Shown in pieces: positions 13,517 through 60,491 of a stretch of DNA of 64,000 nt (within the stretch, counting starts at the first letter, position 1; every line of letters begins with the position of its first letter). The translations under genes and the position numbers were made by a program. The DNA lies in sequence record PZ166176.1. One strand, written 5' to 3'. The stretch is from a phage. Under the pieces are notes generated by a model. That model saw only the letters and a list, made by a program, of their open reading frames with translations, had not been told where the DNA came from and made no database searches.

Positions 13517-14056
13517 TATCCATGTTTATCTATGCAATATAAGTGCATAACTATAATGTTGATAATAGTTCGCAACAACTAACTAACCAACAACCTAAAA
13601 CAATAAGCAAACTAATCATAATCAAAGGAATAATAGCAAGATGATTGATAACGACAAACAATCAAACCATGATGAATACTAAGCAAGATAACGATAACAC
13701 GACAAAACAACCAACTAACGAACAATAACAAACGAAACCATTAAAATAATAACTATTGCCATAATAGTGACTGAATGAAATCATTACAAAACGAATCATT
13801 CCCAGGATCATCATTAGCACGCTATGCCGGACACATAGCGAGCTAATAATAAGCCAACTACACCCCAACAATCATAACCATCGGTGATGGTTATTTCTTG
13901 TTACTGCGTAGCTTGCAATGATTGCAAGCGTAATGACGCTTACACTCATTGCGCTGGCTTATTATTAGCATTATATGTAATTACCAAGATCATAACATTA
14001 GCGCAATAACAATAATCATTGTAATGGTTACAATATGAAATCATTAGCATGGCAAT

Positions 14057-14212
14057 AATTATTGGGGGCAATGGGAGGATGATTATCATCATTCCGATAC
14101 ATTGCACACTATGCACATAATAGAATAAAAGTCAATAATTTTGGGGGCGAATACTATCGCGTAGCGATATGTTGAGCACTAAGAAAAGAGATAAACCTTA
14201 ATCATGGGGGCG
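14057..14212. repeat. three direct repeats of a TGGGGGC core
   Basis: attattgggggcaatggg (14057), aattttgggggcgaatac (14135), aatcatgggggcgtaaat (14198); a second direct repeat ATGTTGAGCA at 14165 and 14248. Confidence 0.5.
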
Positions 14213-14330
14213 TAAATATCCGAGGATTGCCAACGGCGATCCGGTAGGATGTTGAGCATCTTCTCTTAAACGTAAATAAAATCAGAAAATTCTTGATTTA
14301 TTATGGTTTTTATGTTAATAAATGTTTAAA

Positions 14331-14349
14331 TAATAATCATTCTCATATG
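14331..14349. promoter_or_regulatory. Fur-box-like palindrome
   Basis: taataatcattctcatatg. Confidence 0.4.
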
Positions 14350-14420
14350 AATAATAGTCTGCTTGTCATGAGCGGGATTAATTGACATTGTTCCGTCATA
14401 TGATGAAGTTGCCAAGCCAT

Positions 14421-14451
14421 TGATAAATAAGTGTTTGTGTGATTTATAATC
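14421..14451 (+). promoter_or_regulatory. sigma70-like promoter (TTGATA-N18-TATAAT)
   Basis: ttgataaataagtgtttgtgtgatttataat; candidate promoter for the block starting at 14868. Confidence 0.4.
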
Positions 14452-14507
14452 AAGTGGCCCACCTTGTCGCTATGTTGGCATGAGCCTTGCATAAGTCATT
14501 GAATACG

Positions 14508-14526
14508 AATGATAATTATTCTCATT
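14508..14526. promoter_or_regulatory. Fur-box-like palindrome
   Basis: aatgataattattctcatt, about 55 nt downstream of the candidate promoter. Confidence 0.45.
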
Positions 14527-14867
14527 CGCATGATATTTGGGAATTGTCGCTGCGTGGACCTGACGGCCCGAAAATTCGCGTTAAGCACTTCTTACGTATG
14601 CGCCATGATTTTTGCCATATCATATTGATTCTATTAGATATTCTTGCCGTGATTGCCATGAAACAGGGTGTCCCGAAATAATCTCTCCCCGTAGATATTT
14701 TGGGTTACTTTTTATACAAGAGTGGGGTGTCAAAAATAATCGGTATATATGGGATAATTGATAGGGAATACCAATGATAAATGAATTGTAATTGTCGAGG
14801 ATTGATCGTAGGATGTTGGTGATTGATGATTGCCATGAAAGATGGCTAACGATGAGAGGAGATTATC

Positions 14868-26930: not shown

Positions 26931-27350
26931 ATGTTAGGTAAGATCAAAGCCTTTTTCAAACGTATTATCGAAGGAAGTCCAACAGAAGGTGCATTAGGAA
27001 GATCCCTAACAGGAGAACCACTTGCCATAATTTCTATCAGTCGGCATGGTGGATATTCCATTCGACAAACACCTTTAGGTATAAAAGGTAGTATGCTTTC
27101 TTGGACAATATCTCAAGTTGGTGATAACAGGCTTGCAGCTATAGCGTTACTTCGTGGGGAGTATGACTACTGTTTATCAGCATCTTCTAAAAAGCACCTC
27201 ATAGAGCACATTAGAGACAGAGTAGAAAGAGAAGGCGGATACTTCTTCGAAACTAAGAGAAACGAACAAGGAACTCTTGACTTCACTAAGGTTTACTGGG
27301 ACAATCATACTCGTCAAACTGTTGAACAACTTCTGGAGGAAAGATGTTAA
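26931..27350 (+). CDS. hypothetical early protein (139 aa)
   Basis: SD ttaaggggga. Confidence 0.65.
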   Translation: MLGKIKAFFKRIIEGSPTEGALGRSLTGEPLAIISISRHGGYSIRQTPLGIKGSMLSWTISQVGDNRLAAIALLRGEYDYCLSASSKKHLIEHIRDRVEREGGYFFETKRNEQGTLDFTKVYWDNHTRQTVEQLLEERC

Positions 27351-27553
27351 AAGCTTTTGCTGTATACTCTACTGTAGGATTCTTTTATTGGATTATAGTT
27401 GTTGTTGGATGTTGGTTGGGTTCTTCTGTTGTGATGGGAGAATGGTTAACATACAATGTATTTGAATGGGATGTAGTTTGTAGATCATTACTTGTTATAT
27501 GGACTGCTATTGTTTGTTGGATAACTGTTAGTCTAACATTAGATCTATATTGA
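27344..27553 (+). CDS. small membrane protein (69 aa)
   Basis: Two hydrophobic helices, Trp-rich. Confidence 0.6.
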   Translation: MLKAFAVYSTVGFFYWIIVVVGCWLGSSVVMGEWLTYNVFEWDVVCRSLLVIWTAIVCWITVSLTLDLY

Positions 27554-27720
27554 TTAATAGATGGTAGATAGATGATCATAGTTTATCTACCTTCACTTAC
27601 GTTTCATACCTCACTATCGTGAGTAACATGAAACATTATTATATAGAAATCTACTACTCGCTATCGCTCGTAAACATATGTTTAGGGTACCATATTTTTT
27701 TGAAAAAGTCAATGCTGATT

Positions 27721-27810
27721 CACCTATCAATTATCTGTTTAAGATAAGTCTTACCTATCAATCTAAGTCTTAATTAGTATTGCACCTATAGTAAGACTAT
27801 TCCTATAGTT
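27721..27810. repeat. four iteron-like direct repeats (CCTATCAAT/CCTATAGT core)
   Basis: cacctatcaat (27721), tacctatcaat (27752), gcacctatagt (27782), ttcctatagtt (27801). Confidence 0.5.
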
Positions 27811-27845
27811 ATTAACCCTCTTCTTCTGTAGAATGTAATTAGATC

Positions 27846-27876
27846 CTTGACAAACTCACAAAACTTGTGTTACATT
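27846..27876 (+). promoter_or_regulatory. sigma70-like promoter
   Basis: ttgacaaactcacaaaacttgtgttacatt. Confidence 0.4.
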
Positions 27877-27913
27877 GTGTCTCACAGGTGAATAATACCG
27901 AACAGGAGGAAGA

Positions 27914-28129
27914 ATGAGTTCCAATTTTCTATACAAAGCAAAAGATTCACGAGATGGAGAGAACCATTGGTGGTTGATCACAGAAGATGGTGTTATCATC
28001 CTACCGTGGGACGGAGAGACGAAAGTTCAAATATTAGAGAAAGTAAAAGGTGTTAGTTTTAATGTTAGTCATGACATAACAACTTTCAAAGCTTTTGCTA
28101 TGAATCCTAATCTTGTTGCTGAATGGTAA
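27914..28129 (+). CDS. hypothetical early protein (71 aa)
   Basis: SD aacaggaggaag. Confidence 0.65.
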   Translation: MSSNFLYKAKDSRDGENHWWLITEDGVIILPWDGETKVQILEKVKGVSFNVSHDITTFKAFAMNPNLVAEW

Positions 28130-28142
28130 TCCAGGAGAAAAT

Positions 28143-28361
28143 ATGACTAAAATGTATGCAGCCGTTGATAAGCTGGATGGGTCTGATTCTGTTTTTATTT
28201 TGAATAAAATGGGTGTCTTAGTTTATGCCCGAACTTCTCAAAACATAGAACACCAAGTGGAAGCAGCACAAATTTTAGAGCAAATAACCCCTCCATACCT
28301 ATACTCAAATGTTGAGCGTTTTAACGATGCACTTGGTTTGACGTTAATAGCGGAATGGTAA
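28143..28361 (+). CDS. hypothetical early protein (72 aa)
   Basis: ATG 28143 with SD ccaggag. Confidence 0.6.
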   Translation: MTKMYAAVDKLDGSDSVFILNKMGVLVYARTSQNIEHQVEAAQILEQITPPYLYSNVERFNDALGLTLIAEW

Positions 28362-28561
28362 TAATGGCGAAAATGTTGGAAATTGATAATGTCGTAACAA
28401 TCACTACGTCCATACCTTGCCATCCTATGCCTTGCCCCTATTGTGGTGGTGCAGGATATGTTATGGCGGATGTAGGTCAAATTTACGAGTGTAACCCGTG
28501 CAAAACCACAGGTTATATCGAAATAGAATCAGAGGAGAAACACTATGAGCCAAAACGCTAA
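28355..28561 (+). CDS. small zinc-ribbon-like protein (68 aa)
   Basis: CPYCGG...CNPCKTTG pairs. Confidence 0.6.
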   Translation: MVIMAKMLEIDNVVTITTSIPCHPMPCPYCGGAGYVMADVGQIYECNPCKTTGYIEIESEEKHYEPKR

Positions 28562-28994
28562 AGAAAAAGAAGTAATCACGGTAATCCGTCAGATGGAAGG
28601 TGCCGAAAACAATGCTTTTGTTACTAAGATTCTTCTTAATATCTTTGAAGATATTATTTTAAACAATCCTGGTCATAAAGATTATCAGTATGATGTTATG
28701 ATGGGTGCTTTGCTTGAGATTAACAAAAACACTTTTGCTGAATATGAGCAACACATGCTTTTACCAGAGGAAGATCAGGATTATTTGTTATCTGGTGCTT
28801 TAAGTGCACAAGAAAATTTCTACCACGTTCTTAATATGGCTTATGCAGATGAACTTGCTGTTTCCCTTGAAGAGCGTATTCAAATGGTTCGTGATGTGAT
28901 GAATGAACAAATCCAAGAAGTTGAAGACTTGGTGGCAGAACCTTTAGCAGAAATTCGTGCAGCTATTGAAAAACAAAAAGGAACTCAATCATGA
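28545..28994 (+). CDS. hypothetical early protein (149 aa)
   Basis: Overlap-coupled ORF. Confidence 0.65.
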   Translation: MSQNAKEKEVITVIRQMEGAENNAFVTKILLNIFEDIILNNPGHKDYQYDVMMGALLEINKNTFAEYEQHMLLPEEDQDYLLSGALSAQENFYHVLNMAYADELAVSLEERIQMVRDVMNEQIQEVEDLVAEPLAEIRAAIEKQKGTQS

Positions 28995-29158
28995 TGCAAG
29001 TAGGTGATGTGGTTTGTCTTAAAGGTGCAAACAAACAAATGACAGTAATAGAAAGTTATGGTGAATCTTGTAAAGTAACTTGGTTCGATGAAAACGGGGA
29101 ATTGCAACACGCCATATTCGATCAAAAAGCTTTGAGGAAGGTTGAAGAAAAAGAATGA
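28991..29158 (+). CDS. 55-aa small protein, DUF2158/YodC-like
   Basis: MMQVGDVVCLKGANKQMTVIES...CKVTWFDENGEL fits my recollection of the GDVV-LKSGGP-MTV pattern of that family; below the track cut-off. Confidence 0.45.
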   Translation: MMQVGDVVCLKGANKQMTVIESYGESCKVTWFDENGELQHAIFDQKALRKVEEKE

Positions 29159-30757: not shown

Positions 30758-30988
30758 GTGTTAAATAAAATCGAAGAAGGTTGTATGGCATTTTTGGTAG
30801 ATAACCCGTTTCCCTTTATGGTTAAGGTCCATGTAGGAGAGTATTTAGGTTACGACGAATGGGATTGTAGTATCAATAGTGAAATGCACCACTACCAACC
30901 AACAATACTTAAGACGGATCAAATGGCGCGTATTACAGTAGAGGATGAATTGATCATTGAGTTATACGAGAGAGCACTACACAAGTAA
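30758..30988 (+). CDS. hypothetical protein (76 aa), last plus-strand gene
   Basis: GTG start after SD aggagg. Confidence 0.55.
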   Translation: MLNKIEEGCMAFLVDNPFPFMVKVHVGEYLGYDEWDCSINSEMHHYQPTILKTDQMARITVEDELIIELYERALHK

Positions 30989-35391: not shown

Positions 35392-35421
35392 AATATTTCT
35401 CCTCTATTGGTTGATAGGTTA

Positions 35422-35474
35422 AGTTTATCAAGCTTCCAGATTCCTGTCAATAAAAAACCCGCCGAAGCGGGTTA
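35422..35474 (-). promoter_or_regulatory. minus-strand terminator plus promoter unit
   Basis: Minus strand: aacccgcttcggcgggtt plus ttttttatt, then TTGACA-N17-TAAACT. Confidence 0.55.
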
Positions 35475-59970: not shown

Positions 59971-60155
59971 TCTTCTTCATCCCAAGATTCAAAAGCACAA
60001 CAATCATCGGTTTCTATAATACCAACACGTCCGCAGGTATTGCAAGTGATTTTATCCCCGTAGAATAAATAATTTTTATCACCCTCTGTGTTTACAGTTA
60101 TGTCATTACTACCACAAGGGCAAGTCAGCCAACCAACAACGATATCTTTTTTCAT
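59967..60155 (-). CDS. zinc-ribbon small protein (62 aa)
   Basis: CPCG...CNTCG. Confidence 0.55.
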   Translation of the reverse strand: MKKDIVVGWLTCPCGSNDITVNTEGDKNYLFYGDKITCNTCGRVGIIETDDCCAFESWDEEE

Positions 60156-60164
60156 AATCCCTCC

Positions 60165-60491
60165 TTAAGCGTTAAGTTCGTTGTTGAGTTCGTAAATCTC
60201 TTCTTGAAGAGCATCAATCTCTTCCTCCAAACGGGAGATCTCTTCTTTTAGATATACCATTTCGGATTCTTTCTCTTCTAATTCATTTTCAAATTTTACT
60301 TTATTAGCCTCATTTTCATAATTCAGTTCAGCGTAATCATCACGCATTTGTTCAATAAGATGAATCAGAGACAAGATGTAATTGTCTCCCGTTTCATCAC
60401 GCCACTCTTCACCGTGACGGAGAACGGTAATTCGTCCAGTATCTTCATCTAAAATTGTCTCATATTTACGATCATCTGTATAAATCTGCAT
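60165..60491 (-). CDS. coiled-coil protein (108 aa)
   Basis: C-terminal heptad-like EEISRLEEEIDALQEEIYELNNEL. Confidence 0.6.
   Translation of the reverse strand: MQIYTDDRKYETILDEDTGRITVLRHGEEWRDETGDNYILSLIHLIEQMRDDYAELNYENEANKVKFENELEEKESEMVYLKEEISRLEEEIDALQEEIYELNNELNA

Follow-up and report, generated by a model that had tools for sequence, protein, structure and literature searches.

Whether short direct repeats in a phage genome mark an origin of replication or a site of transcription control is the question raised by positions 27721-27810 of sequence record PZ166176.1, of which a stretch of 64,000 nucleotides (the window) was analyzed. The initial annotation described these repeats as an iteron-like array of four copies just upstream of a promoter, and proposed a transcription-factor binding array or a secondary origin. 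We favor, with roughly even confidence, the view that the repeats are protein-binding elements of a compact divergent transcription-control region rather than origin iterons; protein binding and the direction of regulation are what we infer from the sequence anatomy, conservation pattern, and motif statistics that were observed. By sequence comparison, the window is that of a phAPEC8/ESCO13-like E. coli myophage of the genus Phapecoctavirus (Stephanstirmvirinae), and positions 27000-29000 were 98.5-99.1% identical to about 60 phAPEC8-like genomes. The repeats lie, as originally described, in a 360-bp non-coding gap (27554-27913), which is by far the largest gap in 14 kb and within which no credible open reading frame (ORF) was found.

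The repeats are two pairs and not four copies of one unit, because the four copies have CCTAT alone in common. The sequence ACCTATCAAT occurs exactly twice, at 27722-27731 and 27753-27762, with a spacing of 31 bp, and CCTATAGT occurs exactly twice, at 27785-27792 and 27802-27809, with a spacing of 17 bp; from copy to copy, the spacings are 31, 31, and 17 bp. On the plus strand, copy 1 (CACCTATCAAT) spans 27721-27731, copy 2 (TACCTATCAAT) 27752-27762, copy 3 (CACCTATAGT, which includes the palindrome CTATAG) 27783-27792, and copy 4 (TTCCTATAGT) 27800-27809. The formula (C/T)ACCTAT(C/A)(A/G), which had been given for all four copies, fits three of them (27721, 27752, and 27783), and the fourth, TTCCTATAG, has a mismatch. 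The iteron-like array thus survives as a set of real, modest repeats, but as two different, heterogeneous pairs instead of four iterons. Interleaved with the ACCTATCAAT and CCTATAGT pairs are two copies of TAAGTCTTA (starting at 27745 and 27764, the second spanning 27764-27772 on the plus strand) and an inverted GTAAGACTA at 27791-27799.

Dinucleotide shuffles of the 360-bp gap were used as the chance baseline. A 5-mer seen at least four times was present in 93% of the shuffles and is therefore ordinary, an exact 10-mer repeat was present in 10%, and at least six repeated 8-mers in 5.7%. The first two figures favor the main rival explanation, in which the repeats are neutral or residual, arising from slippage, duplication, or chance in a fast-evolving spacer that only spaces two promoters; we consider this explanation possible but doubtful. 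It is opposed by the repeat density of the locus, which ties for second or third among all 100-bp windows in the 64 kb by repeated 8-mers.

Elsewhere in the genome the repeat is sparse: YACCTATMR has four matches in the 64 kb, three of them at this locus, and CCTATCAAT occurs three times in the whole 143-kb genome of the relative DIJ07P1, twice at this locus and always in non-coding DNA. The third CCTATCAAT, with the same four following bases, is found on the minus strand at 14756-14768, near the presumed left genome end, and also at the equivalent place in phi92. For CCTATCAA, 4/7 occurrences genome-wide are non-coding versus a non-coding fraction of 7.8%, and ACCTATCAAC, a 9/10 match to the repeat, overlaps the predicted start of a TTGACA-17-TAAACT promoter on the minus strand at about 35408-35450. 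These data suggest that the scattered non-coding sites may constitute a small set of operator-like sites, the statistics being modest without the two founding copies; a genome-wide regulon of the repeat was not found, with only three CCTATCAAT in 143 kb. A scan of IMG/VR for CCTATCAAT-N22-CCTATCAAT returned a phiWec-like contig and three others, and the one inspected (L048) was an unrelated phage. Consensus sequences were also compared by eye, namely, those for IHF (WATCAANNNNTTR; best match 8/9), the DnaA box, the Fur box, the tetO half-site, the omega heptad, and the NarL heptamer (TACCTAT of copy 2 fits TACYYMT), and none was convincing.

The repeats are flanked by two predicted promoters that point away from each other. 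The rightward promoter, P_right (27847-27876, plus strand), comprises TTGACA at 27847-27852, an 18-nt spacer, TG at 27868-27869, and TACATT at 27871-27876; the TTGACA promoter of the initial annotation (27846) is real. The promoter scan scored it 10/12 plus TG, and its predicted start near 27883 is followed by the ribosome-binding site (RBS) AGGAGG at 27904-27909 and the ATG at 27914, 28-38 nt downstream of the promoter. In its hexamers, spacer, TG, and downstream gene with an RBS, P_right resembles a sigma-70 extended -10 promoter. Its hexamers are invariant in 10 close genomes, DIJ07P1 has TTGATA, and PsgM04F and phiWec190 have different strong sigma-70 promoters in front of their homologues of the downstream gene. 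The leftward promoter, P_left (27684-27712, minus strand), comprises the -35 hexamer TTGACT (27712-27707), a 17-nt spacer, TG (27692-27691), and the -10 hexamer TACCCT (27689-27684), with a predicted start near 27677. As TTGACT-17-TGgTACCCT that is conserved as a unit, it likewise has the features of a sigma-70 extended -10 promoter; rV5-like phages are reported to use sigma-70 promoters, many of them of this type (PMC3606486). The two predicted starts are approximately 206 bp apart, and because the repeats fill the roughly 135 bp between the -35 hexamers of P_left and P_right, we read the region as a putative divergent control region.

P_left is joined to a hairpin, hairpin 3 (27655-27674, minus strand), which has the form TTACGAGC-GATA-GCGAGTAG with tandem G.A/A.G mismatches and would occupy about +3 to +22 of the predicted leftward transcript. 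The hairpin, which follows the pattern (A/C)CGAGC-GA(T)A-GCGAG(T/G) at 9-14 nt beyond the extended -10, is unique in the window. This leftward promoter-like cassette, more conserved than the repeats and immediately to their left, is the main feature missed by the initial annotation, which also passed over the two TAAGTCTTA and the inverted GTAAGACTA. Distant BLAST comparison demonstrated that the block 27620-27716 is 79% conserved, and non-coding, in Justusliebigvirus (phi92-like phages), although the flanking ORFs are unrelated. An alignment of the cassette comprised nine copies representing at least six lineages (the window, phiWec190, Tr1, KP2025, ECGD1, phi92, the IMG/VR contig L024, and two more copies from DIJ07P1). 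Invariant in all of them were TT.A.TTTT, TG, TACCCTA, and CGAGCG..AGCGAG, including the non-consensus -10 TACCCT in 9/9, and the spacer sequence varied; the hexamers, TG, and 17-18-nt spacing were kept, with the -35 at most conservatively varied, across Phapecoctavirus, Justusliebigvirus, Tr1, KP2025, and the IMG/VR contig. The outer pair of hairpin 3 covaries, being A-U in five copies and C-G in three. Within ten close genomes, 4 variable sites were counted in this left part of the gap (161 nt) versus 26 in 426 nt of the flanking coding sequences, which is a trend only (p = 0.09). Judged from these alignments, the P_left cassette is conserved across Stephanstirmvirinae and appears, together with the possible RcsB input described below, to be a more interesting object than the repeats themselves.

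Two other interpretations of the conserved block were examined and rejected. The TTAGGGTA..T-run block does not behave as a plus-strand terminator, since L024 keeps the hexamers and TG without the T-run (its spacer is not T-rich). TATCAAT is not a plausible plus-strand -10, as 19-20 nt separate it from any -35-like hexamer, and the hexamer is without T at position 6.

A profile search found three cassettes per genome in Phapecoctavirus and Justusliebigvirus, at relative positions that match between the two genera (about -30 kb, 0, and +40 kb). Each is about 65 nt long, TTGACT-17/18-TGnTACCCT ... CGAGCG-GAWA/GCA-GCGAG; the paralogues in DIJ07P1 are at 69219-69285 and 139403-139472, and the cassettes of Justusliebigvirus VEcB are at 100469, 73567, and 140170. 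Co-oriented genes lie downstream of the cassette at locus 1 of phi92, in L024, and in genome copies B and C, as would be expected of a real promoter. At the copy beside the repeats and its counterparts in Tr1, KP2025, and ECGD1 (the last of which has the same downstream LYKAKD gene), the flanking genes are all rightward, so that in these cases the predicted leftward RNA would be non-coding and would lie antisense to the operon upstream, at its end.

The cassette invites comparison with the promoter-early stem-loop (PeSL) regulatory cassettes of T4-like phages (PMC2839356, PMC4122927). Like PeSL, it is a promoter-plus-stem-loop unit of about 65 nt that is repeated (three times in DIJ07P1 and three times in VEcB), is located in a region of small, variable early ORFs, and retains its sequence from genus to genus although the flanking genes change, those flanking ORFs not being homologous. 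Unlike PeSL, it is present in three copies per genome at conserved positions, and its stem-loop lies downstream in the leader and is not an upstream terminator.

A scan of metagenomes for the 18-mer ACTCGCTATCGCTCGTAA from the phage hairpin gave 60 matches, most of them probably due to chance, plus an apparently unrelated hairpin family of gut phages. That family, TTAC-TC-GC-(TATC/TCC/TAC/TGC)-GC-TC-GTAA, is multi-copy (loci L062, L063, L079, L084, L092, L103, and L104); several source contigs are 140-171 kb in length, and one is labelled human gut. Compensatory changes are clearly visible in it, the internal mismatch TC/CT (GA/AG on the opposite strand) is conserved, and the exact 18-mer that the family has in common with the phage hairpin is probably convergent.

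Conservation of the repeats themselves bears on the neutral explanation. Among ten close genomes, variation at the locus is highest in the zone 27715-27830, with 16 variable sites in 116 nt, as expected for a neutral spacer. These single-nucleotide polymorphisms (SNPs) avoid the repeat cores, however: one falls within 34 core nt and 15 within 82 non-core nt (Fisher p = 0.037). No SNP is present in copies 1 and 2 or in the core of copy 3, and copy 4 has one (27807 A>G, in phage anhysbys). The TAAGTCTTA repeats do vary, which again agrees with neutrality, and the second of them is probably not constrained, because it differs among relatives at 27764 and 27767. In the divergent subgroup of phiWec190, phiWec181, and PsgM04F, copies 1 and 2 with their 31-bp spacing are identical, at an overall identity of 83%, and this argues against mere residue; beyond copy 2, this subgroup has unrelated sequence and extra small ORFs in place of copies 3 and 4 and everything to their right, so that copies 3 and 4 are subgroup-specific, as a neutral origin would allow.

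Also against a neutral origin, CCTAT starts exactly 10 nt beyond the P_left -35 hexamer in the window, in phiWec190, in Tr1 (CCTATCGTT), and in KP2025 (CCTATTAAT), the offset being the same in Tr1 and KP2025 although the flanks are otherwise unalignable. The core of copy 1 occupies -46 to -54 relative to the predicted start of P_left. At the copy 1 position, ECGD1 has ACCGAT, plus an inverted CTATCAAT 6 nt further on, and outside the genus there is a single CCTAT-type element or an inverted one; at the orthologous site of phi92-like phages, the motif is missing save for one inverted CTATCAAT.

Two pseudo-palindromic sites that overlap the repeats, namely copies 3 and 4 and the TAAG repeats, resemble boxes for the host envelope-stress regulator RcsB. 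The homodimer box of RcsB is TN(G/A)GAN4TC(T/C)NA, and the site in rprA spans -33 to -53 (PMC7913699); the RcsAB box consensus is TaAGaatatTCcta (PMC4325325). Box 1, TAAGATAAGTCTTA (27740-27753), is palindromic, lies between copies 1 and 2, includes the first TAAGTCTTA, and matches the RcsB box exactly, with 10/14 positions of the RcsAB consensus and 5/5 of the most conserved bases; in phiWec190 and PsgM04F, the same site reads TCAGATAAGTCCTA, again an exact RcsB-box match. Box 2, TAAGACTATTCCTA (27792-27805, plus strand), is an exact RcsB-box match and agrees with the RcsAB consensus at 13/14 positions; its centre is 52 bp from that of box 1 and is placed at about -84.5 relative to the predicted start of P_right and about -121.5 relative to that of P_left. 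The first six bases of copy 4 are the right half of box 2, and the two boxes together would account for copy 4, the first TAAGTCTTA, and the inverted GTAAGACTA. Box 2 is the only RcsAB match with at most one mismatch in the 143-kb DIJ07P1 genome, where 0.085 would be expected, a figure that tells against the neutral explanation. The best-match p for the RcsAB consensus is 0.0006 within the inter-promoter DNA and 0.0018 in Tr1, which has an exact RcsB-type box (12/14) abutting the P_left -35. All three SNPs inside the boxes (27748; 27793 and 27797) among the ten genomes fall at N positions. The repeats look like protein-binding sites with RcsB as a possible binder, and we regard RcsB as a lead.

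The RcsB pattern TNRGAN4TCYNA is loose and common, with 12 matches in the window versus 5.1 +/- 2.3 in shuffles. Most of the 12 are inside early-region ORFs, and Justusliebigvirus VEcB has 6 in 149 kb. In the divergent phiWec190/PsgM04F subgroup, a second exact RcsB-type box, TAAGATTTGTCTGA, was observed at L003 1942-1955 (the same in L002, and in L004 by eye), in the next intergenic gap, directly after the inserted ORF for a small membrane protein.

Taken together, the gap would be organized, from left to right, as an upstream-operon hairpin, the P_left cassette, about 135 bp of repeat-bearing shared DNA, and the strong early P_right. P_left would be an extended -10 promoter with a leader hairpin and, in Phapecoctavirus, no ORF behind it. 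The repeats would provide two kinds of probable protein-binding site: the two ACCTATCAAT, three helical turns apart, with the first anchored 10 nt upstream of the P_left -35; and the two RcsB-type pseudo-palindromes, five helical turns apart, which would generate copy 4, TAAGTCTTA, and GTAAGACTA. Protein bound at these sites may determine, early in infection, how active the weak P_left is, and perhaps P_right as well. The half of the earlier proposal that spoke of a binding array is better supported in this light, since the repeats lie between predicted divergent promoters, SNPs avoid their cores, copy 1 has a fixed offset, and exact RcsB-type boxes overlap them. Divergent bacterial and phage promoter regions similarly have opposite sigma-70-type promoters with phased repeats in between (here, 31 bp for three turns and 52 bp for five); in contrast to them, P_left has no ORF and reads into the 3' end of an operon convergent with it. 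With the RcsB and RcsAB boxes of Enterobacteriaceae, the locus has in common two exact RcsB-box matches upstream of predicted starts, one of them 13/14 to RcsAB, and the Tr1 box abutting the P_left -35 resembles the rprA site in its placement. It differs from them in that it is in a virulent phage genome and not in a host promoter, is without counterpart in phi92-like relatives, and follows a low-information pattern.

Several points weigh against a protein-bound divergent control region. The repeats are short and heterogeneous, and their significance versus gap shuffles is only about 0.05-0.1. The whole 27723-27765 block is about 88% identical between Phapecoctavirus subgroups, so that the cores are not clearly better conserved than the spacer, and the non-coding enrichment of CCTATCAA is marginal without the two founding copies (2/5, p ~0.05). 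P_left scores 8/12 on plain hexamers and was found by pattern match, the promoter scan not having listed it, and P_right is near-consensus and should need no activator. The RcsB motif was selected post hoc, after inspection of the sequence, among roughly 15-20 candidate consensus sequences, and Justusliebigvirus (phi92-like) has no RcsB-type boxes at the orthologous site. No recognizable DNA-binding protein was found among the neighboring genes, and the literature on Phapecoctavirus, phAPEC8, Stephanstirmvirinae, and Justusliebigvirus yielded no transcript, transcription-start, or binding data.

Another alternative is a role in replication, with the repeats as initiator sites and P_left making a primer or R-loop RNA through the AT-rich 27635-27654, as in oriF and oriG of T4 and the primary origin of T7. 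A primer-RNA origin is conceivable because a conserved promoter without an ORF has a stable hairpin and an AT-rich stretch behind it, and P_left is strongly conserved yet ORF-less in Phapecoctavirus, Tr1, KP2025, and the syntenic Justusliebigvirus locus. In phi92 and L024, the hairpin has the core GCGAAGC, a very stable DNA mini-hairpin that has been reported close to some origins. At the 100-200-bp scale, the AT content of the gap falls in the 99th percentile, and the three cassettes per genome are at conserved positions, although two of the three are ordinary promoters of co-oriented genes. Origin iterons, such as the O-binding repeats of lambda ori or the iterons of P1, F, and pSC101, are likewise helically phased direct repeats beside an AT-rich stretch, hairpins, and a promoter. 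The units here, in contrast, are 8-10 bp and not 17-22 bp long, about half the usual length, and are non-uniform. Three or more near-identical direct repeats of that usual size at regular spacing were not found: there are 2+2 copies, of which only copies 1 and 2 are conserved in the phiWec subgroup, and the array is not conserved beyond the genus. None of the 10 neighboring ORFs resembles an initiator gene, the turning point of the cumulative GC skew is at 30974, where gene orientation flips, and not at the repeats, and there are AT-richer loci in the window, at about 1236-1610 and 14170-14340. An origin at the repeats is thus improbable on this evidence, and the proposed secondary origin, unlike the binding array, is left with no specific support.

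A last alternative places the function of the repeats in RNA, with the repeats acting in a read-through or other transcript as structure or as sites for a protein or small RNA. Read-through into the gap is plausible, as hairpin 1 at its left end has a poor U-tract, and the arms 27740-27754 and 27791-27805 are 80% complementary. The fold of 27715-27830 is unremarkable, however (z = -1.9; 11/200 shuffles fold as well), there is no Rfam match even at E = 5, and the repeats lie upstream of both predicted starts, all of which makes an RNA-level element very improbable. Folding of the repeat zone as DNA, including cruciforms, was also not significant.

We return to the divergent control region as the preferred reading. 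One specific form of it, which we regard as rather unlikely at present, is that RcsB, with or without RcsA, is wired into early control, where the phased boxes and the Tr1 box would gate the ORF-less P_left and the RNA would serve as antisense or as a replication primer. If so, early phage expression would be coupled to the capsule and envelope-stress state of the host, and the cassette found three times per genome would be a dedicated regulatory RNA or primer unit rather than a plain promoter. Transcription control is almost unknown in phAPEC8- and phi92-like phages, which are widely isolated for therapy against avian pathogenic E. coli (APEC) and encapsulated E. coli. The locus offers an early control region that combines two predicted starts with four to six candidate protein sites in a space of 200 bp, a non-coding cassette with better conservation than the neighboring genes, and, in RcsB, a candidate host input that regulates the capsule response used by bacteria against phages. 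Even if the repeats are inert, annotation would gain, in that the gap should be recorded as a promoter region rather than as an origin. No publication describing the 27554-27913 locus was found in a search of the same phage literature that covered promoters and RNA-seq.

The left of the gap contains two more hairpins. Hairpin 1 (27563-27591, plus strand) has an 11-bp stem and a 7-nt loop in the RNA fold, and corresponds to the hairpin that had been placed at 27561-27590. It starts 10 nt after the stop codon of the upstream ORF (27551-27553), and its pairs are kept in three lineages on the plus strand (11, 10, and 11 of 11, via G.U) versus 9, 7, and 8 on the minus strand. Because the pairs are kept at 10-11/11 only on the plus strand, hairpin 1 belongs by sequence to the upstream rightward operon, as its 3' hairpin or putative terminator. 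It is annotated as a rho-independent terminator in phage ASO2A (TransTermHP), its tail, TTCACTTACGTTT, is a weak U-tract, and the terminator scan did not list it. Hairpin 2 (27601-27634) is compound, with the outer stem GTTTCAT/ATGAAAC and the inner CTCAC-TATC-GTGAG, and folds on both strands; by-eye comparison found a hairpin with a different stem sequence at its position in phiWec190, phi92, ECGD1, and Tr1.

On either side of the gap are ORFs for a 69-aa membrane protein (27344-27553, plus strand) and a 71-aa protein (27914-28129, plus strand), both part of a long run of small rightward early ORFs of unknown function. A 42-aa plus-strand ORF at 27619-27747, annotated in phAPEC8 and ASO2A, was rejected as a gene, given that it is interrupted by a stop at its third codon in phiWec190 and is without a counterpart in phi92. 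Among the 10 neighboring ORFs, no Pfam domain of the initiator kind was found and the PHROGs assignments are of unknown function; the tRNA scan found nothing in the window, and Rfam gave no match at the gathering threshold on the whole window or at E <= 5 on 27500-27950. Downstream of P_right, the first two genes, 27914-28129 (phrog_16110) and 28143-28361 (phrog_24460), are paralogues. The product of the first has very few homologues, all small; it matches long repeat proteins weakly and over multiple stretches, and its motif W-LI--DG-IILP resembles WG-type beta repeats.

Other parts of the window were also noted for their repeats or composition. The stretch at about 1330-1610, which contains repeated AAAATTTAAAGTTT units, exceeds the rest of the window in AT content (79-82%) and in repeat density, and on composition alone is a better candidate for an origin or UP element than the repeats discussed above. 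A third repeat-dense 100-bp stretch, at 60150-60290, has CTCTTC-type repeats. On the minus strand at 35408-35450, the terminator AACCCGCTTCGGCGGGTTTTTT is followed by the TTGACA-17-TAAACT promoter mentioned above, upstream of a 313-aa DUF7277/DUF7275 protein.

The region of about 13900-14867 (some 900 bp) has no ORF longer than 64 aa, and several GenBank records of the genus start or end inside it; in phi92, a 343-bp direct terminal repeat is annotated at the homologous end. It carries the repeats GGATGTTGAGCA and TGATTGCCATGAAA, and GATAATTGATAGG at 14756-14768 is the reverse complement of copy 1 plus 4 nt. This region is probably a left-end early control region. The related palindromes AAATGATAATGATTCGCATTT and CGAATGATAATTATTCTCATTCG are located in large non-coding regions, at 1634-1654 and 14506-14528, and by eye match about 13/19 positions of the Fur-box consensus GATAATGATAATCATTATC.

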